Source: Candidatus Heimdallarchaeum aukensis
GTDB lineage: Archaea; Asgardarchaeota; Heimdallarchaeia; Heimdallarchaeales; Heimdallarchaeaceae
DNA: 64,000 nt
Reading direction: 5' to 3'
Assembly (NCBI GenBank): GCA_021513695.1
Contig: CP084166.1
Coordinates: forward strand, 768,001-832,000
In this document: piece by piece, positions 4,873 to 41,126 of the stretch
Numbering within the stretch: position 1 is the first letter of the stretch
Layout: every line of letters begins with the position of its first letter
Notes under the pieces: generated by a model
Told to the model about the DNA's origin: nothing
What the model saw: the letters and a program-made list of their open reading frames with translations, nothing else
The model's database searches: none
Position numbers and translations under genes: made by a program

Positions 4873-5835
4873 TTATTGGTTTATATATCCGTGCTCAATT
4901 ACACACTTATCAGCGTCTAGATTTAAAACACTTATAGTATACTTTTTGATGTCATCATAACTTGTACTCGTCTTATCTATAAGATCAGCGAGAATATCAA
5001 GCAACCTCCTAGCTTCCTCGTGACTTTCATCAGTTTTTATTACCAATCCAAAGATATGAGATTGTGAAGAACGGAGAATGAATTTATAGTCTTTAGACAT
5101 GATAAACTGAATAATATTTTGTTCATTGAAAGTTTTTTTTGCAAAAGTTTGTATAGCTGAGAGAAAACCAGAATAGAGAGATATTTTATCTGAAAGTTTT
5201 TTCTTTGAGATACTTAAAATTGGCAATCCATCTCTATCTGCAAGTAAAAAAGACTCAGGAGTAACTTTTCTTTTTTGAATAAGTTTAGATAACTGATTTT
5301 GTAACCAATATAGGACAGAATCAAAATTTTCTCCAGTTTGCATGCTTATCTTAAAAAATTGAAAAGAGGCATTTGGAATCATAGCGAGATTATATATTTC
5401 CACGGTATTGATAATTTCTTCCAGGTTCATACTATTTTCTAAATCTGCTTTGTTACACAGAAATAGAATTAGAAACTCATCTCCGTTATCTTTTAACTTT
5501 ATTGACTTCCAAAATTCTTCTTTTGCTTCAAGTAATGATTCTCTATCTGAAGAATCAATGATAAAAATTATCCCATAAGCTAACTTAATGTAATTTTCCC
5601 AGATAGTCTTTCTAAAAACTTCTTGTCCCCCTAAATCAAAAATATTTACTTTTAGATCAAATAGTTCATATTGTTCTAACTGAACCCCCATAGTTGGTTT
5701 AGGACTAGTGAATTTTCCTGTGAGAATTCTGTTAACAAAAGTAGTTTTTCCAGCATTAGGTAAACCTAAAATTACTAAAGGAATTCCTTTTTTCTCAAAA
5801 GAAAGTAGTTTTTCAGATATTTTCTTCTTACTCAA
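4873..5835 (-). CDS. Arf/Sar/Rag-like small GTPase fused to a C-terminal roadblock-like domain
   Basis: G1 is GLPNAGKTT, G2 is PTMGV, G3 is DLGGQE (Arf-type), G4 is NKAD and G5 is SMQTG. The C-terminal ~140 aa (LLADRDGLPILSIS...FLSAIQTF...) resemble roadblock/LC7. Confidence 0.75.
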   Translation of the reverse strand: MSKKKISEKLLSFEKKGIPLVILGLPNAGKTTFVNRILTGKFTSPKPTMGVQLEQYELFDLKVNIFDLGGQEVFRKTIWENYIKLAYGIIFIIDSSDRESLLEAKEEFWKSIKLKDNGDEFLILFLCNKADLENSMNLEEIINTVEIYNLAMIPNASFQFFKISMQTGENFDSVLYWLQNQLSKLIQKRKVTPESFLLADRDGLPILSISKKKLSDKISLYSGFLSAIQTFAKKTFNEQNIIQFIMSKDYKFILRSSQSHIFGLVIKTDESHEEARRLLDILADLIDKTSTSYDDIKKYTISVLNLDADKCVIEHGYINQ

Positions 5836-6016: not shown

Positions 6017-6961
6017 TTGACAAAAAGGATTTTAGTAACTGGTAGTTACGGACAAATTGGTCAAGTTCTTGTTCCTGCTCTAATGAATAGATATGGAAAA
6101 GAAAATATTATTGCAACAGGAAGAAAAAAGATTCCTTCAGTTTTTAAAGAAAAAGATGTTCATTATCATCGATTGGATGTTCGAGACTTAGCACAAATGC
6201 AGACTCTTCTCGTTGAACACGATATCGATATCTTAATTCATAATGCATCTGTTCTTTCTGCTACAGGAGAAAAAAATCCTCAACTTGCACATTCAATTAA
6301 TTTTGAAGGTTTTTATAATGCTTTAGAAGCCACAAGAATGCTAAATCTTGAACAACTTTTTGCTCCAAGTTCTATTGCAGCTTTTGGCCCATCTACTCCA
6401 AGAGAGAATACTCCTAATGATGTAATCACTCGACCTACTACAATATATGGAATAAGTAAAGTCTATATAGAGCTAATGGGAGAGTACTATCATCAGAAAT
6501 ATGGTTTGGACTTTAGATCTCTTCGTTATCCTGGAGTAATTTCTCCTGAAGAACCTGGCGGTGGAACAACAGATTGGGCAATATGGATTTTCTGGGAAGC
6601 TTTACGTAATAAAAAATACACTTGCTTCTTAAAAGAAGATACTTCTCTTCCAATGATGTATATGCCAGACTGTATTAAATCCACTATTGATTTAATTGAA
6701 GCAGATAATTCAAAGCTTGAACATCGTTCATTTAATGTAACCGCATTTAGTTTAGCTCCCAAAGATTTAGTAGAACCTATAAGAGAGGTTATTCCTGAAT
6801 TTAAAATAGCATATGAACCTGATTTTAGACAACAAATTGCTGAATCTTGGCCAGCTTCAATTGATGACAGTGTAGCTAGAAAAGAATGGGGTTGGAAACC
6901 TGATTACGATATTCCTGCTATGACAAAAGATATGCTAGAAAAAATATCCAAAATGATTTAA
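6017..6961 (+). CDS. NAD-dependent epimerase/dehydratase-family enzyme of the extended SDR class, probably L-threonine 3-dehydrogenase-like
   Basis: ILVTGSYGQIGQVL is a Rossmann GxxGxxG motif. YGISKVYIELMGEYY carries the catalytic YxxxK. The gene uses a TTG start with an AGGTGA Shine-Dalgarno 8 nt upstream. Confidence 0.7.
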   Translation: MTKRILVTGSYGQIGQVLVPALMNRYGKENIIATGRKKIPSVFKEKDVHYHRLDVRDLAQMQTLLVEHDIDILIHNASVLSATGEKNPQLAHSINFEGFYNALEATRMLNLEQLFAPSSIAAFGPSTPRENTPNDVITRPTTIYGISKVYIELMGEYYHQKYGLDFRSLRYPGVISPEEPGGGTTDWAIWIFWEALRNKKYTCFLKEDTSLPMMYMPDCIKSTIDLIEADNSKLEHRSFNVTAFSLAPKDLVEPIREVIPEFKIAYEPDFRQQIAESWPASIDDSVARKEWGWKPDYDIPAMTKDMLEKISKMI

Positions 6962-19715: not shown

Positions 19716-20537
19716 TTAAAATAGAAAAGGTATTAGTGCTTTCCTATTATTTGGGTAATCAGTGAATTTTTCTTGATACCAATTGTGATGAGCTCGGGCT
19801 CTGGGTGCTAAGTTGAAAAATGTCCATAAAGCAAAAACCAATCCAGGAACTGACCAAGTTAATATTGCCCAACCTATCCATTCCATTATCTCTCCAAGAT
19901 AATTAGGAGATGAGACAAACTTGAACATTCCACCATAAGGAATCTTATACCCATCTTTTGCTCCTTTTTCTCTGAGATTGCGGAGAATATGATCTGATTG
20001 CTTGTTAATAAAAAATCCAGTAATAAACATAATAATGCCAATGATAAATTGTGGAGAATAAAACCATGTATTGGTGTACATATTTTCTGGAACAAGGTAA
20101 AAAAGCCATATTCCCTGAATATAAGTATTGAAGAGATTAAAAGTTACTCCAAAGAGCATTATCAATATAGGCATTTTTTTCCTTCCTCTTAACATCCAAG
20201 GATAAATTAGGGCCCGATGAATATAGTGAATTTCAAATATTGCAATAAAGACAATGAAAACTGGATCCTTTATTCTTTCACTTCCAAAAAAGTAAATTGC
20301 CATTAACAATGCGGACGGAAATTCCATTATAAACCAAGCTACTCTATCATCTAAAGTTGGCCCCCATCCTTTTCTTCTATGACGTCCATAGGGTGCTGTT
20401 ATGAAAAACAGTAAGATGAATATTGAAACTCCTAACCCTAAAAAAACGTACATTACAGCTTTAAAATATAAAGGGTTACCAAATACAGAAAGAATAGATT
20501 CCATAAGTGAAGATAGTAAAGACATTATTCTTTTCAA
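19716..20537 (-). CDS. 3-oxo-5-alpha-steroid 4-dehydrogenase (SRD5A) family membrane reductase
   Basis: The C-terminus DHILRNLREKGAKDGYKIPYGGMFKFVSSPNYLGEIMEWIGWAILTWSVPGLVFALWTFFNLAPRARAHHNWYQEKFTDYPNNRKALIPFLF lines up with the SRD5A1/2 C-terminal signature (..YKIPRGGLFEYVS.ANY.GEI.EW.G....HH.WY..KF..YP..RK..IPFLF). Confidence 0.75.
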   Translation of the reverse strand: MKRIMSLLSSLMESILSVFGNPLYFKAVMYVFLGLGVSIFILLFFITAPYGRHRRKGWGPTLDDRVAWFIMEFPSALLMAIYFFGSERIKDPVFIVFIAIFEIHYIHRALIYPWMLRGRKKMPILIMLFGVTFNLFNTYIQGIWLFYLVPENMYTNTWFYSPQFIIGIIMFITGFFINKQSDHILRNLREKGAKDGYKIPYGGMFKFVSSPNYLGEIMEWIGWAILTWSVPGLVFALWTFFNLAPRARAHHNWYQEKFTDYPNNRKALIPFLF

Positions 20538-20586
20538 AAAGCAGCTTTTATTTAAATTTTATTTAAAACCTAAAAAAAAGAAGAAA

Positions 20587-22074
20587 TTAGGGGAGTTTAT
20601 TCATATTTTCAGCTATACTCCGTATAACCTCCCATATTACACCTACACTTTCTATCTCCACTTTTTCATCGGGAGAGTGGGGAGAGAGAATTGTTGGTCC
20701 AATCGAAGTCACTTGTAAATTAGGATCTAAAGCTAAAAACAGACTGCATTCCAATCCTGCATGAATGGCTTCTAGCTTTACTTCTTTTTTATACACTTGT
20801 TCATACTGTTCTTTAACAAGTTTCAAGAATGGTGAATTAAGATTTGGCTCCCAACCAGGATAAGCTTTTCCTTGAGAGACATTGGCACTCACTTTTTCTC
20901 CGATTTTCTTCAGTTTTAGTCTTACTTCTTCAAGCTCATTCATTACTGAACTTCTGGTTGAAACATGAATTTCAACTTGCTTCTCACTAGTTTTTACAAC
21001 TGCAAGGTTGTTAGAAGTTTGAACTAAATCACTTATTTCTTTGCTATATGAAATAACTCCATGTTGAATCTCATCTAAAACATAGATTACATTCTTTGTT
21101 GTTTCTTCAGTAAATATTTTTTCTACATTGTCCTTTTCAAACATTTCAAACTTGAAGTTAGGTTCATATTCTTTAATTTCATGTGAATTCTTTCTAAACC
21201 ACTCTTTCAAAGCTTTCTTTGCTTCTTTCTCATTTTCCTTAGGTAATGCTATTCGAACTGAACAATCTCGGGGTATTGCATTATGTGCCGTTCCTCCTTC
21301 GATACTTACAAGATGAAAAGGCTTTACTTCGAGTTCAGTCAATTTATCTCTTAAGAAGTTTAAGGCTGAAATAGCAACTTTTATTGCATTAGCTCTTGGT
21401 AAATTAATGTCTACTCCTGAATGTCCCCCTTGAAGTCCTGATAGAACAAAACGAATCTCTACCCAATTCTCAGGGTTATCTATGCTCTCAAACTCTATTG
21501 GAATATCTATCTGTGTTCCTCCTCCCCCTGCGCTACTTATTGTTATTTTACCTAAATCCTCAGAATCAACATTCAGCAAATATTTTCCTGTGAAAAAACC
21601 TTTCTTTACATTAAAAGCTCCAGTCAATCCCGTTTCCTCGTCAACAGTAATAAGCAACTCCAGTTTTCCATGCTTTACCTCATCATCTAGAAAAAGAGCT
21701 AAACCCATAGCCAATCCTAAACCATTGTCAGCTCCTAAAGAGGTTCCTTGTGAAAAAACATACTTATCGTTAAAAGTTACAGGAATAGGGTCTTCTTCAC
21801 AATTAAAATTTGGATCATCTGCTTGACAAACCATGTCCATATGAGCCTGAATTATAAGAGTTGGGTATTTTTCACATCCTTTACTTGCTTCTTTCGTTAA
21901 AAGAAGATTTCCTGTCTCATCCTCCTTAAACTTAATATTATTCTCTTTCGCCCAACTTTTTATCCATTCTCTAATTTTTTCTTCTTTTTTTGAAGGACGG
22001 GGGACTTGTGTTATTTCATAAAAAATTCTCCACACTTGTTCAGGTTGTAATTCAGATAATTTATTTGAAGTCAT
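20587..22074 (-). CDS. pepD: Aminoacyl-histidine (Xaa-His) dipeptidase, M20 family
   Basis: QAHMDMVCQ is the metal-binding His/Asp motif. GADNGLG, ITVDEETG and the 495-aa length are typical of PepD. Confidence 0.8.
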   Translation of the reverse strand: MTSNKLSELQPEQVWRIFYEITQVPRPSKKEEKIREWIKSWAKENNIKFKEDETGNLLLTKEASKGCEKYPTLIIQAHMDMVCQADDPNFNCEEDPIPVTFNDKYVFSQGTSLGADNGLGLAMGLALFLDDEVKHGKLELLITVDEETGLTGAFNVKKGFFTGKYLLNVDSEDLGKITISSAGGGGTQIDIPIEFESIDNPENWVEIRFVLSGLQGGHSGVDINLPRANAIKVAISALNFLRDKLTELEVKPFHLVSIEGGTAHNAIPRDCSVRIALPKENEKEAKKALKEWFRKNSHEIKEYEPNFKFEMFEKDNVEKIFTEETTKNVIYVLDEIQHGVISYSKEISDLVQTSNNLAVVKTSEKQVEIHVSTRSSVMNELEEVRLKLKKIGEKVSANVSQGKAYPGWEPNLNSPFLKLVKEQYEQVYKKEVKLEAIHAGLECSLFLALDPNLQVTSIGPTILSPHSPDEKVEIESVGVIWEVIRSIAENMNKLP

Positions 22075-22166
22075 TTATGGTCTTTTAAACATTCTTTAGA
22101 TGATGATAAAAATGTTTTTGAAAAACGATATTTGTTTTTTTCAATTCTAAATAAACTAATGAATAG

Positions 22167-22841
22167 TCACTCATAGTTTTTTAGAAATTTATCAAGTACC
22201 AGCTTACTTACTATTCGATAAGAAGGATTATAGTTCGTTCTAAATATAGCTGAATGAGAAATAAGAGGAAGATCCAAACACGACTTATATCCTTTAAGCT
22301 GAATAGAAATGTCTGATAAAGTATTTTTCAGCAATCTTATTTGATTGTCTTCTGTTGTTAATATTCCCTCCTTAAAAAAGTAACAAATTTGATTCCAACT
22401 ATCAATAAATATCAATAATGTTTGAGGGGTAGCTCTTAAACTTTCTTCCATTAATTTCCATATATAAGAAGAGGATAAACCAAGTTCTTCTTTCCAAACC
22501 CTCAAATTCAGTCTTCCAAACATGGTTTTTTCATTTAATAACTCAAACAGTACTTCATCTTCTCTTTTCTTATTACAAGCATCCAGTTCTCGTTCTAAAT
22601 AGACTTTTACTCGTTCTAAATTTGAGATCTTCTTTAAGTGAATCCACCCACAACTTCCTTGGTAAATAAATTTATACAAATCTCCCCACGTTTGTTTTGG
22701 ATACTTCTTCAGATAAAATAAAAGGGAAGAAGGAATTTTTTCTTCTATTATCTCATTAAACTTAGTAATAAGATTAAACTCGTGTAATAGTTGAATATTG
22801 TTCTGTTCGTTCATTTTCCTTAGAAAGTTAATTGATGCCAA
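22167..22841 (-). CDS. Hypothetical protein
   Basis: A 224-aa ORF with no recognizable motif. It is co-oriented with PepD and the DsrE-like gene. Confidence 0.4.
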   Translation of the reverse strand: MASINFLRKMNEQNNIQLLHEFNLITKFNEIIEEKIPSSLLFYLKKYPKQTWGDLYKFIYQGSCGWIHLKKISNLERVKVYLERELDACNKKREDEVLFELLNEKTMFGRLNLRVWKEELGLSSSYIWKLMEESLRATPQTLLIFIDSWNQICYFFKEGILTTEDNQIRLLKNTLSDISIQLKGYKSCLDLPLISHSAIFRTNYNPSYRIVSKLVLDKFLKNYE

Positions 22842-23155
22842 CCTTCTTTAAGCATTTCAGTGACTAATGTGCCCACGTACTTTACATCAATTCCTAATTC
22901 TTCTAGCTTATCGCTAACACCGAAGTTGTCACTACATGCTTTGCAAGCGATTACTTCTACTCCTGCATTAAGTAAGGCTAAAACATATTCTTGAAAATTT
23001 TTATCTTCTGCAGCTATTTTTTCTGTTGGCCCCCAGAGAATTACACGAACTTCATCCATCCATTTAAGCTTTTTTGCATTAATTGCATAAGGAAAACTAG
23101 CTTCTTGATGCACTACTACATCTCCACTTGTTAGAATCAAAAATACTTTGTTCAT
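22820..23155 (-). CDS. DsrE/DsrF-like (YchN-like) family small protein
   Basis: A 111-aa protein with an N-terminal beta strand (VFLILTSGD) and a conserved Cys pair (VIACKACSDNFG), which fits the DsrE-like fold. Confidence 0.45.
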   Translation of the reverse strand: MNKVFLILTSGDVVVHQEASFPYAINAKKLKWMDEVRVILWGPTEKIAAEDKNFQEYVLALLNAGVEVIACKACSDNFGVSDKLEELGIDVKYVGTLVTEMLKEGWHQLTF

Positions 23156-23231
23156 ACAATTTTTTTTGAACCCAGTTTTTATGTTTTTTTAAAAGTAAAA
23201 AAGTAGTTAAAGCTTCTATTTTCATCTTCTC

Positions 23232-24314
23232 TTATTTATTAACAGTTTTTATTATAATCTCTGCTAGTTCTTCAGATTCTAGACCTTCAATTTTATTTTC
23301 GCTAAATTGGTAAAAACTATCTATTTTTTGTTTTAGTAATTCTTGAGAAAGTTCTGTTCCCATAAGGTTTTCTTCTAATTTCGAGAGATTAAAGGGGTTC
23401 TTGATGAAGAAATCTCCTGTTATTGCTATGTCTGCTATCGTATTTTCTTCTACTTGAATATAGAGTGATATAAGTCCTCCTTTAGTTTTTACTTCGTTAA
23501 AGAAGCATCTTACTCCAGATTTAATTTTTAGTGAGATTAAATCTTTGTGTCTTCTTTCAACATAATTTATCCATTCTTCTGTCTGGTAATATTGATTTAA
23601 CCTTTGAATCTCGTTTTTCTCTAGCTCTGTTAACGAACCAACTTCAAGAGATATTCCTAAAATGTCCTCGAATTCTTTCTTAAAATTGTAAATTAAATCT
23701 AGTTTATCTGGAGAATAACCCAAAAAGTACTTTATACTACCTATTCTTTCCTCAAGTGTTTTTGCTATCTTGTCTCTAAATTTCTCGTCTGGCACTTTAA
23801 GAATTCTAGACATCTCTTTGACAGGAAAATCTAGAATAAAGTTCCCCACTAAGATTGTTGATCTATCTATCGCACTTGCTCCATTCCCACTGATTTTTTT
23901 ATCTAAAGCTACTATATCATTTAACGGTTGGTATTTTGCGGGTATACCTAAATATCTATAAGTAGAAACAACTGGCTGCAAAAAATGTTCAAACAACTCT
24001 TTTACAGAGAAAGGGTAATCATTTTTGTTAAAAATCAATTGATAAAACAACTGGTTTTGATCTAAATAAACTGCCCCTCCTCCAGTTATTCTTCTTATCA
24101 AAGGAATATCCATTTCTGATATTGCGTTGGTATCTACAACTAAATCTATAACCTGATGTATTCCAATAGAAACATAAGGGGTATTTGGCCAAGTAAGAAT
24201 AAGAGTATTAGGAGAGTTATGTTTAGACTGGATATTAGCTAATGCGTGGTAAACTGTTTGTGTTTCAAGAGGGGGGAGATCAGGTAAAACAATTAATCTC
24301 CAATTATTTTTCAT
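23232..24314 (-). CDS. lplA: Lipoate-protein ligase A
   Basis: The BPL/LPL catalytic-domain motifs RRITGGGAVYLD and GNGASAIDRSTILVGNFILD. The 360-aa protein also carries the C-terminal LplA domain. Confidence 0.8.
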   Translation of the reverse strand: MKNNWRLIVLPDLPPLETQTVYHALANIQSKHNSPNTLILTWPNTPYVSIGIHQVIDLVVDTNAISEMDIPLIRRITGGGAVYLDQNQLFYQLIFNKNDYPFSVKELFEHFLQPVVSTYRYLGIPAKYQPLNDIVALDKKISGNGASAIDRSTILVGNFILDFPVKEMSRILKVPDEKFRDKIAKTLEERIGSIKYFLGYSPDKLDLIYNFKKEFEDILGISLEVGSLTELEKNEIQRLNQYYQTEEWINYVERRHKDLISLKIKSGVRCFFNEVKTKGGLISLYIQVEENTIADIAITGDFFIKNPFNLSKLEENLMGTELSQELLKQKIDSFYQFSENKIEGLESEELAEIIIKTVNK

Positions 24315-24326
24315 TTTAATCAGCGT

Positions 24327-25022
24327 TTAGCTTCCCTTTACAGGAGACCATGCGTCTTCGTTGGATAAGAATAAGATAGGATACTCATTGTTATCAATTA
24401 AAATTACTCTTCCAAAACTGATTTTGTAATTTCCATCTTCTCTTTCTAGATTTGCATTAAAGGTCACTGTTATTATGTACTTTAGTTGTATTCCCCTACT
24501 ATCAATTTCATCAATAATATTTCCAATAGAAGGATATTGTCCAGTAGCAAATGTTGAATAGGCGTCTGTTTCTATATCCAATTTTACAAACATGAAGGTA
24601 CTTGAACCATTTAATGTTTCATTATATTCTGTGTAAAATGTATCAGTATTATTATCCCACAAACTTATTCTCATTGTTAAGTTGAAGATGTGGACATTAT
24701 CTTTAAAACCACCATAGTTTTGAGTATTTACAGTTGCGAGGAAGTCTTCTTCTCCTATAATAAGTTCTGTAATGTTATTAATATAGCTTAATTCAGGAAG
24801 AGCACCTAATGAATCCCAATAACTCGAACTTCCATTTATTTTTGCTGTTTCGTTTAATATCATTGCACTTCTTCCATCTTGCACAGTGTCTATAATGTTT
24901 ATTTCAGAATAGAATTGCTCGGGGGTTGGAGGAACAGTACTGTAATGTATAAGTATTATCGGTAAACCTAGTAAGAGAAATCCCAAAATAATTACAAAAA
25001 AGTTGAAACTTGAGTTACTCAT
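24327..25022 (-). CDS. Secreted or membrane-anchored hypothetical protein
   Basis: N-terminal hydrophobic signal/anchor FFVIILGFLLLGLPIILI. The rest is N/T/S-rich. Confidence 0.4.
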   Translation of the reverse strand: MSNSSFNFFVIILGFLLLGLPIILIHYSTVPPTPEQFYSEINIIDTVQDGRSAMILNETAKINGSSSYWDSLGALPELSYINNITELIIGEEDFLATVNTQNYGGFKDNVHIFNLTMRISLWDNNTDTFYTEYNETLNGSSTFMFVKLDIETDAYSTFATGQYPSIGNIIDEIDSRGIQLKYIITVTFNANLEREDGNYKISFGRVILIDNNEYPILFLSNEDAWSPVKGS

Positions 25023-25103
25023 AGATAGTATTAGAATCTTATAGTTAAAAAATCTTATCTTTTTAAAAAGTAATAAAAAATTAAGAAGAGATTTATACCT
25101 TCT

Positions 25104-26375
25104 CTATTTAGTGTTCTTCTTTACCTTTGAAAAAATAAAATTAACAGTAAAAACGACCACAAATAAAGCAAGCGTACCTATAAAGTAATAGATTGCGGGA
25201 TTGTTTAAGAATGTGTAAACACCAAAATAGGAAGTTGTCCATCTATATCCATCTTTAGAGAAGAAGAAAGCTATTTCAGGTGTTTGAAGACTTGATTTTA
25301 CACTTGGCCCTTGTTCTGTTGCTACAACGACATTGTCCTTAAATGTTGTTACTTCAGGAACACGTTCATAATAATCATCATGAAGTGGAGAAGAAATGTT
25401 ATGGAATTCTAGCGTTTCTTCTTTTGTAATGTCTTCTACCCAGAAGCCCCAGAGAAACATTTCATAACGATTGACTTTATGGATAGTTGTATTGCTGATA
25501 TCCTGGGCAACAACGTAAAATCCATCATTCCATCTTGTTAATGATGGATACAACAAACCTACATCTTGAGCAACAACTTCAGTTAAGTTTGCATCTGCTA
25601 AATCTAATTGGAAAGGTGCTCCTACAGATATTCCAGAACTAAATGAACTACCATCTACGGTGGATGTAAGTTTAACTAGATTGTCTTCTGTATAAGTAAT
25701 ATACAATAAATTATTATATGAATATAAGTTAAAATCTCTTCCCAAACTTATTGAAGCAGAAGTTACTTCTGTACTATTTTTAAATGTCTGTAAATCAAAA
25801 TGAACAATGCTTGTTAATACTCGTGTATGTACGATAACTTTGACTTCATAGCTGAAAAATATAACTAATTCATTATTGAGAATAGCAGAGTCAAACCACA
25901 CAAAATCCTTATTGAAGACAGTAGAATTACCCAGTTCTACATAGTCGCTCCATGTTTTTCCATCATCATCTGAATATTTCATAAAGAAATATGTGAAATC
26001 AGTGTCATTTCTTTGTATTGCAAAAAGTACCATAGTTCGTCCATTATAATATATAGCATCACTCTTCTGAACTTTAAAGGAAGTTTTATTGATCACAAAA
26101 GTTGTCGGAGTTATCTCTATTTCTTCAGTATCATGCGTTTTAAACTCTGTAACAGTTTCATAACATGGTCTAGCATAGATTTCCGAACTAACTACTCTAT
26201 CAGCGTCATAACCAATTTTAGTATAAATTAGCAAATACTGTTCAGGAGAAGTTTCTATGAAATATGGACTCTTTTCGTGATAAAGTATTTTTGCCTTTGC
26301 TACATAAGGATTAAATGCATTAAGAAGCAAAATGAATATTGATAACAAAACGATTTTTTTCACTGCTCTTCTCAT
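25104..26375 (-). CDS. Secreted protein with a BNR/sialidase-like repeat and a C-terminal TM anchor
   Basis: The signal peptide MRRAVKKIVLLSIFILLLNAF..AKA. A BNR-like motif, SDDDGKTWSD. A C-terminal TM helix, FIGTLALFVVVFTVNFIF, followed by basic residues. Confidence 0.45.
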   Translation of the reverse strand: MRRAVKKIVLLSIFILLLNAFNPYVAKAKILYHEKSPYFIETSPEQYLLIYTKIGYDADRVVSSEIYARPCYETVTEFKTHDTEEIEITPTTFVINKTSFKVQKSDAIYYNGRTMVLFAIQRNDTDFTYFFMKYSDDDGKTWSDYVELGNSTVFNKDFVWFDSAILNNELVIFFSYEVKVIVHTRVLTSIVHFDLQTFKNSTEVTSASISLGRDFNLYSYNNLLYITYTEDNLVKLTSTVDGSSFSSGISVGAPFQLDLADANLTEVVAQDVGLLYPSLTRWNDGFYVVAQDISNTTIHKVNRYEMFLWGFWVEDITKEETLEFHNISSPLHDDYYERVPEVTTFKDNVVVATEQGPSVKSSLQTPEIAFFFSKDGYRWTTSYFGVYTFLNNPAIYYFIGTLALFVVVFTVNFIFSKVKKNTK

Positions 26376-26645
26376 TTACTAAACACCATTAAACTTACAA
26401 CCTAATTCAAATTGAAATATATATAAGTTTTGTCAAAGAATTTCATATGGTTTTATTCAAGATATAGTGTCGAGAAAGAAAAAATTCTCCATTTTTCTCA
26501 ATTATGCATTTCTTAGCTATTTTTTGTCCTTAGAATTCACTAATAGATAAACAAAATTCTTGTTTCTTCATCGAGAAAATTTAAAACGAAAATTGGGCTG
26601 ATGTGATAAGGTAAAAATTTACTCTTAACTACTATACTGAGAACT

Positions 26646-26879
26646 CTAGGATATTATGCTTATGTAAGCTTTAAACCCTAGATAGTTCAAAGAACGAACT
26701 ACTTTTTTTCTGTTAATTATTGAGGGGTTTAGTCTAACTTTCACATTTTTTGCCTGAAAATCTACGTTACTGTCCATGATTCCTTCTAAATACTTTAAAG
26801 TTATAGCAATTGTCTTCGCACAATTCTTACAGTGAATATCTGGAATGGCAATTGTCAATTCTTCTTCAAATTCTTTCAT
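26646..26879 (-). CDS. Heavy-metal-associated (HMA) domain protein, CopZ-like
   Basis: IPDIHCKNCAKTIAITL matches the HMA M/HxCxxC motif. The 77-aa length is typical. Confidence 0.5.
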   Translation of the reverse strand: MKEFEEELTIAIPDIHCKNCAKTIAITLKYLEGIMDSNVDFQAKNVKVRLNPSIINRKKVVRSLNYLGFKAYISIIS

Positions 26880-27074
26880 TTAATCATCTCAAGATAACGT
26901 ATTTTTAAACCCTTTTTAAAGTTGGGATAATACTAGATGTTGAATCAAGAATATGTAGAAAAAACTTATTTTTTGAAATATTAATAAGTTATTTGACTTA
27001 ACTCGAAAATGAAATGGACTAAATATTTAACAATTAAGAGTTATTTTTTATTTAGATAGTGGAGAGCTGTAAAA

Positions 27075-28376
27075 TTGCAATACTATATTCCAGAATGGGA
27101 CGATATGGTTAGTTCAAGGTATGACTATTGGAATGACACTGAACTACCTGATTCTAGAAAGGTTTATGCACATGAAATTTATCCCAAACCCAACTATGAT
27201 GGAATTTTAGTATCTAGAATGAAGATTGAAGAGAGTAAAACTAAGATTGAAAAAATAAAGAAAGTAGGAGTGCATAGATTTTTCAAGTTCAATGGACCCA
27301 TTTTTGGAGATTGTGGAGCTTGGGGATATATAAATGAAAAAGATCCTCCATTTGAAACAAAAGACATGTTAAATTACTATGAATCTTTTGGCTTTAATAT
27401 AGGTGTTTCCATTGACCACTTATGTATTCCCCAAGTTAAATCAGAATGGTATTATAGACAAGAATTGACACTAAAAAATGCAGAAAAATTTTTCAAATAT
27501 TATGAAAGTGGAGACTATTCTTTTGAAGCAGTAGGGGCAGCTCAAGGATGGGATTTAGAATCGTATAGATATGCAGTGCAAGAATTGCTAGATATAGGAT
27601 ATGATTTTATTGCCTTAGGAGGATTAGCACGAGCACAAACAGGAATAATTATTAAGATTCTTAAAAATATTCAAGATTTAATTAAAGAAAAGAAAATAAA
27701 GATCCATTTATTTGGTGCTGCAAGATTAGATGGCCTACGTGCATTCAATAATTTAGGAGTAACAAGTTTTGATTCAGCTTCTCCTCTTAGAAATGCGTGG
27801 TTAGGTTCTAAAAAGAATTATAGAGGTTTAGATTGGAAGGGTTATACTGCTATTCGTTTACCTTTCCTTTCAAGAACAAAGAAATATCAAAAGTTAGTAG
27901 AGGAAGGACTATTCACTATCAAAGAGCTAGAAGAATTCGAAAAGTCTATCTACGCTCTCCTAAGAAGATATGAAATAGAAAAATCTAGAAGTCCAGAAGA
28001 AATAATAGAAGCTTTTGAAATGCTCAACCAGACATTTACTTTAAGAGATGATCTTAAAGAAGACTACCTTGAAATCTTGAATGAACGACCATGGGAAAAA
28101 TGCTCTTGTCCTGTTTGCAAAGAAGCAGGAATGGATGTAGTTATTTTTAGGGGGAACAACAGGAACAGAAGAAGAGGTTTCCACAACACCTATGTTTTTT
28201 ATCAATTAATGCAGAAAATTCTTAATGAACCTAATTTCAAAGGAACTCCGCATTTAAATTTAATAAATGAAAAAGATTTTTCAATTCCAATTCAAGTTCA
28301 AGCGAAAAAATTAAAATCCAAATTTAACAAACAAACAAAAATTGATAATTTTATAGAACAAATAAGTGAGGAATAG
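27075..28376 (+). CDS. tRNA-guanine transglycosylase (TGT)-superfamily protein lacking a PUA domain, possibly DpdA-like
   Basis: TGT-fold landmarks appear in order: GDCGAWGY (the DSGGFQ equivalent), AVGAAQGWD (QGG), IALGGLARAQ (AIGGLSVGE), SFDSASPLRNAWLG (FDCVxPTRxARxG). The Zn site is CSCPVCK...H. The gene uses a TTG start with a GGAGAG Shine-Dalgarno. Confidence 0.55.
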   Translation: MQYYIPEWDDMVSSRYDYWNDTELPDSRKVYAHEIYPKPNYDGILVSRMKIEESKTKIEKIKKVGVHRFFKFNGPIFGDCGAWGYINEKDPPFETKDMLNYYESFGFNIGVSIDHLCIPQVKSEWYYRQELTLKNAEKFFKYYESGDYSFEAVGAAQGWDLESYRYAVQELLDIGYDFIALGGLARAQTGIIIKILKNIQDLIKEKKIKIHLFGAARLDGLRAFNNLGVTSFDSASPLRNAWLGSKKNYRGLDWKGYTAIRLPFLSRTKKYQKLVEEGLFTIKELEEFEKSIYALLRRYEIEKSRSPEEIIEAFEMLNQTFTLRDDLKEDYLEILNERPWEKCSCPVCKEAGMDVVIFRGNNRNRRRGFHNTYVFYQLMQKILNEPNFKGTPHLNLINEKDFSIPIQVQAKKLKSKFNKQTKIDNFIEQISEE

Positions 28377-28378
28377 CA

Positions 28379-29200
28379 ATGAATTCAGAGTTTGAGAATA
28401 TAGCCACCGAAATTATGATACAAGTGGGGACTGAAAAAGAAGAAGCATTAAGATGTCTTTATTACGAACCAAAAAATGAAATAAAACAAACTATTGTTCT
28501 TATTCCAGGTTTTTTTTCTCTGCCTAGTGCTTGGGACGAACTTTTAATAAATGCAAAAGAAGATTATAGAATATTCTTGATTGAAACCAGAGAGAAGCAT
28601 ACAGCAAAAATAAATAAAAAAAGTGACTTTTCTCTGGAACGTTTTGCTAATGACATCGCTGAAGTAATTGATTACTTAATGTTAAAAGATTATATTTTAG
28701 TTACAAGTAGTATGGGAGGAGCTTTCACATTAACTGCAATGAAAGAAAGCTTAATTCACCCTAAACATAGTTTTCTGGTAGGTCCTGTTTTAAGAGTTGA
28801 AATTCCTGATTGGTCATGGCCTTTAGTTAGAATAACTACTCCTTTCTTTTATCGTTTTATCTTAAAACCTTCAATAAAACTTTATGTCAGAAGAAAGTTC
28901 GAAAGAGATCAAGCTGAAAAATACTGTGTTTCATTAGATAACTTAGAAATTAGAAGAGTAAAGAAAACAATGCTAACGCTTAAAAAATTCCGCATTACTG
29001 CTGAAGACCTTAATGTCATAAATTCTCATTGTGTCCTCATAGGAGCTGAAAAGGATAAGCTCCATCAGTCTCAAATTACAAAATGGATTCATGAACAAAT
29101 ACCTAATTCAGACTATGTAGATTTAGGGTCAAATGTAGTTGCACATGGAATTCCACTCTTAGAATTAATAGAAAAAACAATAGAAAAAGATAATAATTGA
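28379..29200 (+). CDS. Alpha/beta-hydrolase fold protein
   Basis: The nucleophile elbow VTSSMGGAF (GxSxG-like) and a late His (VVAHGIP). It starts 2 nt after the TGT-like stop. Confidence 0.5.
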   Translation: MNSEFENIATEIMIQVGTEKEEALRCLYYEPKNEIKQTIVLIPGFFSLPSAWDELLINAKEDYRIFLIETREKHTAKINKKSDFSLERFANDIAEVIDYLMLKDYILVTSSMGGAFTLTAMKESLIHPKHSFLVGPVLRVEIPDWSWPLVRITTPFFYRFILKPSIKLYVRRKFERDQAEKYCVSLDNLEIRRVKKTMLTLKKFRITAEDLNVINSHCVLIGAEKDKLHQSQITKWIHEQIPNSDYVDLGSNVVAHGIPLLELIEKTIEKDNN

Positions 29201-29278
29201 TTCCTATTATAAAGCAAATTTCTTTTATAAATACCTAATATACCAAAATTTAAAAATTCTTATTTTTTTAATTTAAGT

Positions 29279-30871
29279 ATGCAATTTCTCGCACCTTTTT
29301 CTATAAGACATTCAAAGATATTGGATCAAGATACTTTAGAACAACTAAAAAACGCTCTAAGCAATATAAAAGGGAAAAATATTCTTGTGGAGTTTACCCG
29401 AAACTTTTCTACATTGCTAAAAAACAAAGAAAAAGATAAAGATTTCACAAACTTGGCTTTAGATATCTTTTTCTCAATTGAAGATTATGAAAAAATCCTA
29501 GAATACTCATCGCCCCTTTACGCCGCAGAGTATTATTTTTATCGGGCATTAGCTTTCTATAAACTTAATCAGTTCAATAAGATTGCAAGCCTTAAGCTAC
29601 AATTTGAGATGAAATTTGAGAGAGCATTAGATTTACCTCGTAATCGCTTAATACTTGCTTTTTTAGATCTTTTTATTACTCTTAAAGAAAATCCTGAAGA
29701 AGTCGATCTTAAACTAGAAGAAATAGGTGCGTTTTTAGATAGCCAAGATGAAGAATTCAAAAGTAAATTTTGGGTCATAATAGTATTTTCCTATTATTCT
29801 GAACTCTTATTTATAAGAGATCACTTGAATAAAACAGAAGAAATTGCTAGATTGATTCTTTCCTATTCTCTTCAAAATCAAGACCCATACTTACAAAGTA
29901 ATGCACTCATATTGCTTTCCTCAATTTATATAAGAAAAGGAGAATTTAGAAAAGCAAAACAAATGATTAAATCCTCTCTTGTTCCTGTTAATCAAACAGG
30001 AGAACTAACAAATAAAGCTAAAATACTAAACAATCTTCTGCTTTTAGATTTAGCAAAAATGGACTATCTAAAAGCAGTTGATAGAATTTCAAAGATGAAA
30101 GAACTAAAAATAAGTGATACAAAAAGAAAAGAGTTAGAGATACTTGAACTCAAGTTAAAAATTCATTTAAAACTTGAAAATAATATAGAAGAAAAAATTA
30201 ATGAAATAACTTCAGATTTAGAAAAAGAAGATGAATTCTATCAAGATATTCTCCTCCTACAGTGTTGGTATAGCTTAAAAAAGAAGAACTATGACGAAGC
30301 AAAGAAAACAATAGAAGAACACCTAAAACTCACAGAAAATAACCTAAGTTCATTGTTGAAAAATCGATATTATTATGGATTATATCATAAAGAAGTAGAA
30401 GACTATGAAAAAGCTTTTTCAGATTTTGAGGAAGTAATTGAACTAAGTAAAAAAGACTACAAAATAGAATTATTAGTAAAAAGTTTGATGCATTTCCTTG
30501 ATCTTGCTTTCTCTAATAATAACGAAAAGTATTCGCTTTCTGAAATTATTCAAAAGATAAACATTTTGGAAGAAACTTCAACAAAGCAATTTATTCCTAA
30601 ATTGCAAGTAGATGCTTTAATGATAAAAATGATTTTCACACTTCTAAATTCAACAGAAATAGACATTATGGAAGATTGGGAAAATGCAATGAAAAAAGTT
30701 CATAAATTTAGATACATTGATCGTGTTAAACAACTAAACATAATAAGAAGTTGCTCTGAAAACAATTCTGAAAATAACAATATATATCAACTTGAAGAAT
30801 TATTCAAAGAAATAATACAACCTTACGAATGCTTCTTTTTTATTAAGAAGCCAAAGAAAGAAGAGGGGTAG
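29279..30871 (+). CDS. TPR-like helical-repeat hypothetical protein
   Basis: A 530-aa all-helical protein with repeated Y/F..A..Y.KLG-type TPR-like periodicity. Confidence 0.4.
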   Translation: MQFLAPFSIRHSKILDQDTLEQLKNALSNIKGKNILVEFTRNFSTLLKNKEKDKDFTNLALDIFFSIEDYEKILEYSSPLYAAEYYFYRALAFYKLNQFNKIASLKLQFEMKFERALDLPRNRLILAFLDLFITLKENPEEVDLKLEEIGAFLDSQDEEFKSKFWVIIVFSYYSELLFIRDHLNKTEEIARLILSYSLQNQDPYLQSNALILLSSIYIRKGEFRKAKQMIKSSLVPVNQTGELTNKAKILNNLLLLDLAKMDYLKAVDRISKMKELKISDTKRKELEILELKLKIHLKLENNIEEKINEITSDLEKEDEFYQDILLLQCWYSLKKKNYDEAKKTIEEHLKLTENNLSSLLKNRYYYGLYHKEVEDYEKAFSDFEEVIELSKKDYKIELLVKSLMHFLDLAFSNNNEKYSLSEIIQKINILEETSTKQFIPKLQVDALMIKMIFTLLNSTEIDIMEDWENAMKKVHKFRYIDRVKQLNIIRSCSENNSENNNIYQLEELFKEIIQPYECFFFIKKPKKEEG

Positions 30872-30952
30872 TTTTTCTTTAGAAATTTTGTAATTAAAAA
30901 AAAGTTAAATAGGAAAAAAAGGATATTTTTTTACCAAAAAAGAGGAATAAAA

Positions 30953-31120
30953 ATGACACAAAAATGGATTTGTACTTTATGTGGCTACATTTATGACCCT
31001 GCCGAAGGAGACCCTGACGGAGGAATCGCTCCAGGAACAGCTTTTGAAGATATCCCTGAAGATTGGGTTTGTCCTGAATGCGGAGCTGCAAAAGAAGATT
31101 TCGAACCCTATGAAGAATAA
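30953..31120 (+). CDS. rub: Rubredoxin (55 aa). It is absent from the ORF track because it falls under 60 aa.
   Basis: I translated it codon by codon as [55 protein letters not shown]. It has the canonical CxxCG...CPxCG pairs and aromatic core, and an AGAGG Shine-Dalgarno 8 nt upstream. Confidence 0.85.
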
Positions 31121-31142
31121 TAACAAAGTTTTAAATTGTTTT

Positions 31143-32327
31143 TTACAACTTTCTATTTTTTCTTGATAATTGAACTATTTTTTTTATTACTACAAATTCT
31201 GTTTCATTTAGGACGTTTTTTGTGATTTTTATTTTTTCTTGCTGAATTCTTACTTGGTTTGCATATTCATTCTCAACTAATAGCTCCATCTCCTCTGTTA
31301 TCGCTCCATCTACATTTGTTTTAATAACTTCCATGAGGTTATTATATTTTTCTAGTATTTTTTCATAAACAGCTAATTTTGAAGAGAATTTTGATGTATA
31401 CTTATTTATTTCTTCAGCTCGTTTAATGTCTATAGAAGTTAAACTATCAGTAGCTTCAGATAAATCTCTTAATTCTTCTTCACTAAATTCTCTTTTAACA
31501 AAACTTGAAATTATAGAAATAAGTGATTTATCCAGCAAATAATCTGTTTTTCTCTCATAGCTTATACTAGGGATTGATTTTGATAGAGAAGATTTTTTAC
31601 TTTTGAAGGTAGTATCTTTTTTTTCTGTTGTTAAATACTTTTCAACAAGAACTAATTTTTCATTCCACCATTCCTTAAAAGAAAGACCAGGAGTATATTC
31701 AATAGCAAAATTTAGAAAAATTGTTCCTTTAGCTAAAACTGTTGCGCCTATAGGTTTTTTGAATATGGGTTTACTTGTTCTTTTACCTACAAAGTCATAT
31801 GTACTAAAAGAATGAAAGTTTGAGGGAAGATCTTTTGCTTTACCAAAAAAAATTATTTCTTTTCCAAGATTTGCTAAATCTTTGAGATCTCCTAAAGTTA
31901 CTAAATAATCTTCTCCTAACGAAAGATAAACAAGATCATAAGTTTTTTTGGATAATTTTCTAACAGATTCTGGAATAGCTAATTTTTCTGCTCTTTCTTT
32001 TATTGCTTTTTTTGATAAGCCTGAAAAAGTGCACTCATAAGGAGGAAGAAGTTCATTCTCATTAACTAATCCAAAACCTGCAGAAATAATGTAATAATCA
32101 ACTTCAGCTTTTGACGAAAGAATCTTAACAGCTTTTTTTATTGCAAGAGCTTGTCCACCTATGTATAATTCTCCTGCTTCTCTTAATAATGAAGAAAATT
32201 TTTCTTTTGCACTTTCTCTTTGATCTTTTGTTTCTAGGTCCTTACATGTTGGTTGATCATCATGTTGTACAGACTTTTTCTTTCCACAAGAGTTAATAAC
32301 AAGTATTGAAGGTTTCAGAGATCTCAC
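31143..32327 (-). CDS. Hypothetical protein with a YaaA/DUF328-like N-terminal domain and a C-terminal coiled-coil extension, tentative
   Basis: PSILVINSCGKKK...YIISAGFGLVNENELLPPYE resembles YaaA MLILISPAKT...LSGLYGVLRPLDLMQPYR. The last ~140 aa are K/E-rich and helical. Confidence 0.3.
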   Translation of the reverse strand: MRSLKPSILVINSCGKKKSVQHDDQPTCKDLETKDQRESAKEKFSSLLREAGELYIGGQALAIKKAVKILSSKAEVDYYIISAGFGLVNENELLPPYECTFSGLSKKAIKERAEKLAIPESVRKLSKKTYDLVYLSLGEDYLVTLGDLKDLANLGKEIIFFGKAKDLPSNFHSFSTYDFVGKRTSKPIFKKPIGATVLAKGTIFLNFAIEYTPGLSFKEWWNEKLVLVEKYLTTEKKDTTFKSKKSSLSKSIPSISYERKTDYLLDKSLISIISSFVKREFSEEELRDLSEATDSLTSIDIKRAEEINKYTSKFSSKLAVYEKILEKYNNLMEVIKTNVDGAITEEMELLVENEYANQVRIQQEKIKITKNVLNETEFVVIKKIVQLSRKNRKL

Positions 32328-32333
32328 CTAAAG

Positions 32334-32753
32334 CTATTCAGTATCCTTTTTTGCCAAATATCGATTATAAAATCTTTTAATTTTCTTTTTTTCGAGATCA
32401 AAATCTAGATCTTTACTATTTTTGCCTTCTTGCCTTTCCATTTTATTGAGTTTACTTTGAATTTTGCTTAGTTTTAGAGCAAGCATTGAATTTCTTCTAA
32501 AAAGTTCACTGTTTTCAAAAAACAAAACCCCATATGCTTTTCTAAGTTTACTATACTTTATTGTTAATTCATTATATCGTTCTCTTAATTCTTCAAGATT
32601 CTTAAGTAGACTAACCTCATCAATTTGTAAATCCTCGCTGTTTAATGCCAGAAAATCATAATAATCAAGGAGTGTGTTAATTATATCATCAGTATATTCA
32701 GTAACATCTTCAAAAATAGCAGGAATCTTGACATTAGTGATCATTTTCTTCAT
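32334..32753 (-). CDS. Coiled-coil hypothetical protein
   Basis: A 139-aa protein rich in heptad-like L/K/E. It overlaps the upstream ORF by 4 nt (ATGA), which suggests translational coupling. Confidence 0.35.
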   Translation of the reverse strand: MKKMITNVKIPAIFEDVTEYTDDIINTLLDYYDFLALNSEDLQIDEVSLLKNLEELRERYNELTIKYSKLRKAYGVLFFENSELFRRNSMLALKLSKIQSKLNKMERQEGKNSKDLDFDLEKKKIKRFYNRYLAKKDTE

Positions 32754-33106
32754 TTTGCTACACCTTTTAGAATACCATCTAACTTCTCTTCAAGTTCAGT
32801 AATAACATTATAATCTTCATTATATTCTTTCTTCATTTGTTTTTCTTCTTCTATACTTTTTTTCAATTTTTCAATTTCTTTTTCTCTTTCTGGAATTTTC
32901 TCCAAAAGAGCCTTATATTCTAGTATATACTCCACAAATGCCCAAGAAAGCTTTTTTTCTTTGTTATATTCTGTAAGAAACTTAAAAAATTGGTTTACTT
33001 TTTCTATTATTGTTTCAGATTTTTCCTTTCTCTCTTCAGCGATTCTAGCAATTTTTCGCTGAATTCTTGAGGAAAAAGAAATCTTTACTTTCTCTTGTTT
33101 TTTCAT
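32750..33106 (-). CDS. Ribbon-helix-helix (CopG/Arc-like) domain protein with a coiled-coil tail
   Basis: The N-terminus KVKISFSSRIQRKIARIAEERKEKSETIIEKV fits a beta-strand plus two-helix RHH pattern. It is the first gene of a three-gene minus-strand operon. Confidence 0.4.
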   Translation of the reverse strand: MKKQEKVKISFSSRIQRKIARIAEERKEKSETIIEKVNQFFKFLTEYNKEKKLSWAFVEYILEYKALLEKIPEREKEIEKLKKSIEEEKQMKKEYNEDYNVITELEEKLDGILKGVAK

Positions 33107-33246
33107 TTACAACTTTTTTTTCAGCTTGCTGTTTTAAAAGTTTATTAAGTTTAACTCAAAATCAGATTTTTCAAAACTTTTTTCTTTTACTTCCATCATT
33201 TTTTTTAAATCAAATAACTTTAATAGCTCTAATTCAAAGTTAAATT

Positions 33247-33576
33247 ATGGAAGAAATAAGTGTCAAGGAGTATTTAGAAAAATCAGGACAATTACTAGAA
33301 AAATATAGATTTAATATTGAAAATCTTCGACATCAGAGAAAACAAATAGAACAGAAATTTTTCCTCCCTCACGAGATGGTTGACTTTTTTCATACAAATA
33401 AAAGCGAATACAAAGTTTGGTTAAAAATTCAAGACATGATTCTCACACTTGAAGATGCTTATGCAGACCTAGTTGGGAGTATGATGGAAGCAAAAGCTAA
33501 CCCTGATAATTATAATTATTATTTAGAAGACAAACGTATTACAATTATGCAACTAAAAGAAACTGAAGAAGAATAA
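33247..33576 (+). CDS. Hypothetical protein
   Basis: A 109-aa helical ORF that leads the plus-strand cluster ending in GDPD. Confidence 0.35.
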   Translation: MEEISVKEYLEKSGQLLEKYRFNIENLRHQRKQIEQKFFLPHEMVDFFHTNKSEYKVWLKIQDMILTLEDAYADLVGSMMEAKANPDNYNYYLEDKRITIMQLKETEEE

Positions 33577-33678
33577 AGAAATAAGTGATAAAGAAAAGAA
33601 ATTAAATTAACAATTTTAAAAAGTAAATTCACTGTTTTTCTAATAAGATTTATTTAGGGTGTTTGAATAATATAATAT

Positions 33679-35265: not shown

Positions 35266-35343
35266 TATAACTTAGATATTTAACTAGTTATATCGATAGA
35301 TATTGTAAAAAAATTTAAATCTAAATAATGAAGTGTACACCTT

Positions 35344-36627: not shown

Positions 36628-36651
36628 TCAAGATTTAACCAAAGTGATAAT

Positions 36652-37395: not shown

Positions 37396-37403
37396 AATTT
37401 AAT

Positions 37404-41101: not shown

Positions 41102-41126
41102 TCTTATTATTTTTACTTTTTCTATT

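Follow-up and report, generated by a model that had tools for sequence, protein, structure and literature searches.

Enzymes of the steroid 5-alpha-reductase (SRD5A) family carry out NADPH-dependent reduction of carbonyl-conjugated double bonds in a range of lipids. SRD5A1 and SRD5A2 reduce 3-oxo-delta4 steroids, and PbSRD5A, a bacterial member picked for its closeness to the human enzymes, reduces progesterone in vitro (PMC7815742). SRD5A3 takes polyprenal, not polyprenol, as its substrate; in eukaryotes it works with DHRSX to oxidize, saturate, and re-reduce polyprenol. A third type, TECR, reduces trans-2-enoyl-CoA. Homologs of polyprenol reductase were earlier reported to be absent from archaea (Lombard 2016), and the SRD5A1/SRD5A3/TECRL family has since been assigned an Asgard origin, with duplications from one Asgard-derived ancestor prior to the last common ancestor of eukaryotes (Kay et al., Nature 2025, PMC12872463). 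Here we describe two members of this family, paralogs A and B, encoded in a 64,000-nucleotide stretch of the genome of the Asgard archaeon Candidatus Heimdallarchaeum aukensis (GCA_021513695.1, contig CP084166.1, positions 768,001 to 832,000), which is referred to below as the window. We judge, with a probability of about 0.8, that A and B are functional paralogs from a prokaryotic branch of SRD5A1/2-type membrane reductases and that they saturate a carbonyl-conjugated double bond in a membrane lipid.

An earlier note, made from the DNA letters alone, had placed two SRD5A family genes in the window, and both open reading frames (ORFs) are real. In the ORF list of the window, A runs from 19716 to 20537 on the reverse strand (273 amino acids, with a TTG start), and B runs from 38919 to 39683 on the forward strand (254 amino acids). 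The deposited A protein has 269 amino acids, so its start is the ATG at 20525 rather than the TTG at 20537. Each protein is 100% identical to a deposited entry from Candidatus Heimdallarchaeum aukensis, encoded on a contig of 3.08 Mb. Both are named "DUF1295 domain-containing protein" at NCBI, while A is named "3-oxo-5-alpha-steroid 4-dehydrogenase" in UniRef.

Membership in the family, also claimed in that note, was borne out by a hidden Markov model (HMM) search with Pfam PF02544 (Steroid_dh; 150 positions; gathering cutoff, 22.6 bits). A matched model positions 1 to 150 with 183.9 bits (E = 2.3e-54), and B matched positions 2 to 150 with 186.9 bits (E = 2.7e-55). Among the related families of the clan, Steroid_dh was the best for both proteins and above the gathering threshold, the weak matches being to PEMT (27 to 30 bits) and DUF1295 (29 to 32 bits); an NCBIfam scan returned no model for either. 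Over 251 residues, the two proteins share 50% identity (E = 4e-91), which is far beyond chance. In phmmer searches of PDB, A matched PbSRD5A (7c83) over residues 32 to 272 with 230 bits (E = 4.6e-67), human SRD5A2 (7bw1) with 172 bits (E = 1.8e-49), and Caenorhabditis elegans TECR (22of) with 63 bits (E = 2.8e-16), the alignment identities being 43%, 41%, and 30%, respectively. The AlphaFold2 model of A (predicted local distance difference test score, 88.2; predicted TM-score, 0.85) was matched by Foldseek to 7c83 with E = 2e-18, TM-scores of 0.84 and 0.91, and a root mean square deviation of 2.2 Å over 250 columns, and to 7bw1 with TM-scores of 0.78 and 0.86. The matches to delta14-sterol reductase (4quv; E = 0.02) and to ICMT (5vg9; E = 0.2; TM-score, 0.30) were marginal. 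B aligns over its full length with A and with SRD5A2. A and B are therefore true members of the SRD5A family.

Within the family, A and B are of the SRD5A1/2 type as judged by similarity. The alignment with the SRD5A1/SRD5A2/DET2 group is full length, the lengths are similar (about 254 to 260 amino acids), and the C-terminal signature, the Glu/Tyr pair, and the NADPH site are the same; the differences are a prokaryotic host without a sterol pathway and the replacement of Gln56 by Met. An approximate SRD5A1 query gave 200 bits with A over the full length. A query for SRD5A3, likewise approximate, aligned only through the C-terminal half at 58 to 74 bits (74 bits with A), versus 150 to 200 bits for SRD5A1/2; the published similarity of SRD5A3 or TECR to SRD5A2 is about 26%. 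PbSRD5A, the best solved match, shares with A the seven-transmembrane monomer, the Glu/Tyr pair, and the NADPH contacts. It differs in having Gln-Glu-Tyr where A and B have Met-Glu-Tyr, it groups with Myxococcota and not with the Heimdall clades, and its steroid activity is an in vitro activity.

Functional residues were mapped from Han et al. 2021 (PMC7815742) onto A, B, and an alignment of 221 homologs. The catalytic Glu/Tyr pair (E57 and Y91 in human SRD5A2) is invariant in A, in B, and in all 221 homologs, and it lies in the N-terminal half of both proteins. According to the earlier note, both proteins carry the C-terminal SRD5A signature, with the catalytic Glu in it. The signature is complete in A but partial in B, where SDHILRNLR reads AEFSLRKLR; the catalytic residues are indeed conserved, but the Glu of the signature (GEIMEW) is the equivalent of the NADPH-binding E197 of human SRD5A2. 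The NADPH contacts of the human enzyme are N160, D164, R171, N193, E197, R227, H231, and Y235 (PMC7815742). All eight are identical in A (N178, D182, R189, N212, E216, R246, H250, and Y254), and six are identical in B, which carries D164E and H231T. The Asp-to-Glu change is fixed in all three proteins of the B clade (B, P0122, and P0123), while 219 of the 221 homologs have Asp. The position of H231 varies across the family among H, N, and T, and H231A is tolerated in human SRD5A2 (PMC7815742).

The residue preceding the catalytic Glu sets most of the prokaryotic family apart. At the position of Q56, which provides the Gln of the Gln-Glu-Tyr (QEY) triad, A and B both have Met, as do 215 of the 221 homologs (about 97%); Gln was found there only in PbSRD5A, human SRD5A2, and a few Leptospirales. 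Since nearly all prokaryotic homologs have Met, the crystallized PbSRD5A is atypical of its own family at this position. In human SRD5A2, either change of this Gln, Q56A or Q56L, eliminates the reduction of testosterone (PMC7815742). Neither A nor B has the complete triad of the characterized steroid 5-alpha-reductases, and because of the Met we file them in the SRD5A family and not as demonstrated steroid 5-alpha-reductases. The ratio of nonsynonymous to synonymous substitution rates (dN/dS; Nei-Gojobori, against orthologs) was 0.06 to 0.10 for A and 0.10 to 0.17 for B. From this and from the residue conservation, A and B are maintained under purifying selection and are catalytically plausible enzymes.

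A and B are seven-helix integral membrane proteins, with the NADPH site in the C-terminal helices and the Glu/Tyr pair in the N-terminal helices. Going by 7c83, 7bw1, and the chemistry of the family, the Glu/Tyr pair would form hydrogen bonds with the substrate carbonyl and polarize it, the hydride of NADPH would go to the beta-carbon of the conjugated C=C, and the proton would come from the catalytic Glu. The outcome would be saturation of the double bond next to the carbonyl, whether of an enone, an enal, or an enoyl thioester, in a hydrophobic lipid dissolved in the membrane. The native substrate is probably not a steroid, because 3-oxo-delta4 steroids are not among the products of an anaerobic archaeon that lacks steroids and because the Gln of the triad is Met. 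An endogenous enal or enone derived from an isoprenoid seems more likely, with the conversion of polyprenal to dolichal as the leading candidate.

Several points weigh against this reading. No characterized Met-Glu-Tyr member was found in the literature, the activity and substrate of A and B being inferred, and the closest solved relative, PbSRD5A, reduces a steroid in vitro, so activity on steroids is possible. A and B are much nearer to SRD5A1/2 than to SRD5A3, with the caveat that the SRD5A3 query was an approximate one. The fold of B is predicted from sequence similarity, modeling having been done for A. Dolichol is alpha-saturated even in archaea without the SRD5A family, which is therefore not the alpha-reductase of archaea in general. 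The co-occurrence with isoprenoid or dolichol genes that the earlier note had raised was not seen: the 64-kb window has no gene for isoprenoid, dolichol, glycosylation, sterol, or fatty acid elongation pathways, nor a partner dehydrogenase able to make the enal or enone. The window context thus points to no substrate.

To see how the family is distributed, we scanned a single genome for each GTDB species and found relatives encoded in at least 588 stretches. The archaeal sources include Heimdall-, Prometh- (Loki-), Hermod-, and Hodarchaeota and one bin labeled Thermoplasmatales; the bacterial ones span about ten phyla, including Spirochaetota, Chloroflexota, Myxococcota, Actinomycetota, and Acidobacteriota. 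A Bathyarchaeia homolog was among the protein search matches to A. The best nonorthologous matches to A, among the matches listed, have 53 to 57% identity and include Spirochaetota and Asgard entries. The mean identity to human SRD5A2 in our alignment is 39.4% for archaeal members and 39.8% for bacterial members. A neighbor-joining tree of 88 sequences, built on 252 columns with 200 bootstraps, does not show the archaea as monophyletic, and its deep branching is star-like, with all deep distances at about 48 to 52% identity. With the single verified eukaryotic SRD5A1/2 sequence, no special affinity between Asgard archaea and eukaryotes is visible. The description of A and B as "eukaryote-like" in the earlier note is therefore misleading: their nearest relatives are prokaryotic, the family is widespread in prokaryotes, SRD5A2 is equidistant from the archaeal and bacterial members, and the closest solved structure (7c83) is bacterial. 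Asgard-to-eukaryote ancestry of the family rests on Kay et al. 2025 (PMC12872463) and not on the present tree; both the homology and its link with Asgard archaea had been described before. Complementation of det2 by Leifsonia DET2 was set aside as uninformative, the gene being a recent transfer from a eukaryote to a bacterium. On the contig labeled "uncultured Thermoplasmatales archaeon" (L037), the SRD5A homolog nests within a Promethearchaeota/Hodarchaeota clade and has a Ras-type GTPase nearby, as in the Loki/Hod-type loci below, which suggests either that an Asgard contig was put in the wrong bin or that the gene was transferred recently.

A survey of the genes around 80 species-representative loci from other species revealed one recurrent neighbor, an extended short-chain dehydrogenase/reductase (SDR) of about 325 to 350 amino acids (3Beta_HSD/Epimerase in Pfam). 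It lies less than 1 kb from the SRD5A gene in about 33 of the 80 loci (about 40%). In 27 bacterial loci (Chloroflexota, one Actinomycetota, and single Hydrogenedentales, proteobacterial, and Polyangium loci), it directly precedes the SRD5A gene on the same strand, and in most of them the two genes abut or overlap. Two further Actinomycetota loci have it next to the SRD5A gene but on the other strand, and in Hermodarchaeota, two Promethearchaeota, and an unclassified archaeon the two neighboring genes are convergent. The bacterial SDR matches the NCBIfam models HpnA (251 bits) and sterol C-4 demethylase SdmB (248 bits) over the full length but below the equivalog cutoffs, and 3Beta_HSD is the top Pfam match of the archaeal partner. 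Because the flanking genes differ completely between the Asgard loci, the SDR-SRD5A pair itself is a conserved unit. In two Myxococcota loci, the SDR forms the C-terminal domain of a fusion of about 770 amino acids (L044:7685-9991, forward strand, Polyangium fumosum; L069:3166-5490, reverse strand, Anaeromyxobacteraceae), the N-terminal 440 or so residues of both having no Pfam match. The SDR was not found beside the Heimdall copies, including A and B, or the Spirochaete copies. The only extended SDR in the window, at 6017..6961, was rejected as a partner, since it scored 52 bits with the partner HMM versus more than 260 bits for true partners; its best NCBIfam match is D-erythronate dehydrogenase, below the cutoff. 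By analogy with the eukaryotic pair, a 3-beta-HSD-like SDR next to an enone or enal reductase is the arrangement that would be expected for oxidation, saturation, and re-reduction of an allylic lipid alcohol.

At NCBI and JGI, the names of many close PF02544 homologs read "methyltransferase," "protein-S-isoprenylcysteine O-methyltransferase Ste14," or "DUF1295." Taken with the weak PEMT and DUF1295 matches, such names would make A and B either generic DUF1295 proteins or methyltransferases of the membrane, like ICMT/Ste14 or PEMT. That identity, or one with NnrU, was rejected and can be regarded as effectively refuted. ICMT/Ste14, PEMT, DUF1295, and delta14-sterol reductase belong to the same clan and share a C-terminal helical module that binds the cofactor, hence the weak Pfam matches and the misleading names, which amount to systematic mis- or underannotation. 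ICMT and PEMT, however, use S-adenosylmethionine in a different chemistry. The profile scores are six-fold lower for A and B than with Steroid_dh (about 30 bits versus 184 to 187 bits), the fold match to ICMT is marginal, its TM-score of 0.30 comparing with 0.84 to 0.91 for SRD5A, and conservation extends to the Glu/Tyr pair and the NADPH contacts of SRD5A. It is also quite improbable that A and B are TECR-like trans-2-enoyl-CoA reductases of fatty acid or other acyl-chain elongation. TECR/TSC13/CER10 enzymes are of the same family and chemistry and share the cofactor module and the Tyr and Arg of the HYxxR motif; the window has a gene for a succinyl-CoA-ligase-like acyl-CoA synthetase (3406..4782), and genes for AMP-binding and acyltransferase proteins lie less than about 7 kb from the homolog in Loki and Hod loci. 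These CoA-related genes are distant and not conserved, however, and no elongase, ketoacyl reductase, or dehydratase gene is nearby in the window. The 63 bits and 30% identity to TECR compare with 172 to 230 bits for SRD5A1/2-type proteins, and the alignment is limited to the C-terminal two-thirds, the cofactor half, with H, W, and K in TECR at NADPH-site positions 164, 227, and 231. TECR is also longer than A and B, and it carries an N-terminal ubiquitin-like domain.

Two more specific substrates deserve consideration. A and B could be true steroid 5-alpha-reductases with exogenous 3-oxo-delta4 steroids as substrates, these coming from the debris of eukaryotes in the sediment, and could serve for detoxification or as an electron sink. 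PbSRD5A does convert progesterone (PMC7815742), a Treponema denticola homolog is reported to reduce several steroids, A is 41 to 43% identical to human SRD5A2 and PbSRD5A, and both the catalytic pair and the NADPH site are intact. We nevertheless consider this unlikely, as the Gln that human SRD5A2 needs is Met, the family is widespread in free-living anaerobes without known steroid metabolism (Dehalococcoidia, Anaerolineae, and Asgard archaea), no genes for steroid uptake or catabolism are near A or B in the window, and turnover of a hydrophobic enone by a membrane reductase in vitro does not amount to a physiological substrate. The proposal that A, B, or both are a polyprenal (formerly "polyprenol") alpha-reductase, making dolichol for N-glycosylation after a polyprenol dehydrogenase as DHRSX and SRD5A3 do, is somewhat more credible but still doubtful. 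The dolichol of archaea is alpha-saturated, and no alpha-reductase has been assigned to this step. SRD5A3/DFG10/PPRD enzymes are of the same Pfam family, SRD5A3 takes an enal produced by an SDR, and the SDR-SRD5A adjacency, which extends to Hermodarchaeota and Promethearchaeota, echoes this and has the gene logic for saturation of an allylic alcohol. The prokaryotic partner, though, is an extended, 3-beta-HSD/HpnA-like SDR, whereas DHRSX is a classical SDR. SRD5A1, SRD5A3, and TECR from one Asgard-derived ancestor (Kay et al. 2025, PMC12872463) would also fit. However, the window and the loci of the other Heimdall copies lack an ortholog of the SDR partner, and no cis-prenyltransferase, dolichol kinase, AglB/STT3, or glycosyltransferase gene is near the SRD5A gene in the window or in six other Asgard contexts. 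The closest homologs are in bacteria, which use unsaturated polyprenols, the similarity is to SRD5A1/2 and not to SRD5A3 (a lead only, given the approximate query), and most archaea make dolichol without the SRD5A family. Finally, B might be a decaying or noncatalytic copy with A alone being active. The identity of orthologs across the same species split is 63% for B versus 75% for A, and B has two changes in its NADPH site and an altered SDHILRNLR motif. Its reading frame is nevertheless intact in three genomes, its dN/dS is 0.10 to 0.17, and it keeps the catalytic Glu and Tyr and six of the eight NADPH residues; the Asp-to-Glu change is conservative and, being fixed in three orthologs, looks like a trait of the clade, and position 231 varies across the family and tolerates Ala in the human enzyme. 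Decay of B was rejected on the dN/dS and residue conservation, and we hold it to be very improbable.

Returning to A and B as two functional reductases, the origin of the pair can be followed in related genomes. Sequences of the B type were found only in Heimdallarchaeaceae among the matches listed (P0122, 98% identical over the aligned part; P0123, 63%). In GCA_054001415.1, P0123 lies about 13 kb from P0002, the A ortholog with 75% identity, on the opposite strand of one 30.3-kb contig, so that the spacing of A and B is 13 to 18 kb in two genera of the family. A block of Metallophos, unknown, and GDPD genes lies between the orthologs in both genomes and serves as a conserved linkage marker, and CutA1 adjoins B in all three genomes, with local inversions. 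The pair predates the split of the two genera and has stayed linked, since both copies and their linkage are common to the two. The earlier note had suggested a lineage-specific duplication. The restriction of B to the family and the shared linkage speak for it, and for this reason an old local duplication is favored, but the tree does not group the two copies: the A clade and the B clade each have 100% bootstrap support, A and B as exclusive sisters have 7%, and B groups with two other Heimdallarchaeota sequences at 49.5%. Independent acquisition of one copy is possible. As the pair is old, linked, and under purifying selection in both members, two specificities or two regulatory contexts fit better than redundancy. 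The region 19716..43920 is syntenic with L003/L005 (GCA_054001415.1, JBMXSF010000146.1) but rearranged. A and B are divergent in the window and face each other in GCA_054001415.1, and the Metallophos-unknown-GDPD block is on the strand of B in the former and on that of A in the latter. Inversions near or between the two inverted paralogs are a possible cause.

A broader and rather speculative proposal, which we rate as improbable, is that the Met-Glu-Tyr SRD5A clade, A and B included, and the SDR form a two-enzyme module that oxidizes, saturates, and re-reduces allylic lipid alcohols, the sampled lineages with the adjacency being Chloroflexota, Actinomycetota, Myxococcota, and Hermod- and Promethearchaeota. 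In Asgard archaea it would be the missing alpha-isoprene reductase that makes dolichol from polyprenol and a direct prokaryotic forerunner of DHRSX-SRD5A3, and the paralogs of the Heimdallarchaeaceae would have split the role, for example, between dolichol and another isoprenoid.

Table 1. Coordinates of the paralogs, their mapped residues, and context features in the window, with examples of the SDR neighbor from the locus survey.
Feature	Position	Strand	Basis or remark
Paralog A, SRD5A family (PF02544) seven-transmembrane NADPH-dependent reductase, 269 amino acids	19716..20525	-	Profile, structure match, deposited protein
A catalytic Y105	20223..20225	-	273-amino-acid ORF numbering
A catalytic E72	20322..20324	-	273-amino-acid ORF numbering
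A M71 (Q56 equivalent)	20325..20327	-	Alignment
TATA-box-like TTTAAATA	20549..20556	-	Within the gap (49 bp) upstream of A; ATG 20525 follows after about 27 nucleotides
Metallophos (527 amino acids)-unknown (427 amino acids)-GDPD (247 amino acids) block, context	33679..37395	+	Between A and B
Ras family small GTPase, context	38243..38788	+	131 bp upstream of B, same strand
Paralog B, SRD5A family reductase, more divergent, 254 amino acids	38919..39683	+	Profile, alignment
B M53 (Q56 equivalent)	39075..39077	+	Alignment
B catalytic E54	39078..39080	+	Alignment
B catalytic Y87	39177..39179	+	Alignment
B Glu at the human D164 position	39408..39410	+	B-clade specific
Example SDR next to SRD5A gene starting at about 10001	L074:8943-9956	+	Locus survey
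Example SDR	L025:10752-11729	-	Locus survey
Example SDR	L022:10797-11771	-	Locus survey
Example SDR	L055:11683-12702	-	Locus survey
Example SDR	L019:11669-12661	-	Locus survey

The gene for A is flanked by an M20 peptidase gene on one side and by genes for a CBS domain protein and then a Na+/H+ exchanger on the other. The gap that follows the M20 peptidase gene, upstream of A, holds the TATA-like TTTAAATA, so A probably has its own promoter, with a leaderless transcript or a short leader. B is preceded by the Ras GTPase gene and followed by two unknown genes. The related Heimdallarchaeaceae contigs and the Loki, Hod, Hermod, and other Asgard loci have no isoprenoid, dolichol, or glycosylation genes, and no dolichol, prenyl, or N-glycosylation gene was found in six other Asgard neighborhoods. 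The Ras GTPase upstream of B is kept in the closest relative (L007) and not in GCA_054001415.1. A GTPase of the Ras/Arf family can be found one or two genes from the SRD5A homolog in Heimdallarchaeum and in loci of the Loki/Hod type (L088:8990-9943, L093:7835-8605, L049:11916-12680, and L037:5592-6359, all on the reverse strand), the latter having the order HAD, x, SRD5A, [CheR], GTPase, and glycyl-radical enzyme, with the GTPase convergent. As a functional link, this adjacency was discounted as weak: there are two arrangements, the GTPases match each other at only 55 to 63 bits, and three small GTPases occur in the window alone. With such GTPases so common in these genomes, chance is a serious alternative.

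The window has a G+C content of about 30%, and its three small GTPases of eukaryotic type, which include an Arf-longin fusion, fit an Asgard archaeon. The fusion, a protein of 320 amino acids at 4873..5835 on the reverse strand, has an Arf family GTPase domain (123 bits) and a C-terminal longin-like domain, for which the match to Fuz_longin_1 is 25 bits, just under the cutoff; the architecture is of the eukaryote-signature type. The third small GTPase is at 55557..56090 on the forward strand. A gene pair at 45931..48286 on the reverse strand encodes MJ1566_N (581 amino acids) and MJ1567 (201 amino acids), Pfam families of unknown function, with thioredoxin-like small ORFs and an ArsP permease nearby.

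SRD5A family reductases of Asgard archaea are already in the databases and in Kay et al. 2025 (PMC12872463), and in this respect our finding mainly confirms what is known. It adds that a single signature residue, Met in place of Gln, sets the native prokaryotic clade apart from the characterized steroid reductases, that the SRD5A gene is often coupled to a 3-beta-HSD-like SDR, and that Heimdallarchaeaceae keep two linked copies under selection, and it flags the misleading methyltransferase and Ste14 names on many homologs. If the substrate is polyprenal, these enzymes would fill a gap that dates from at least 2016, the alpha-saturation enzyme of archaeal dolichol, and would tie the dolichol pathway of the eukaryotic endoplasmic reticulum to an Asgard precursor.

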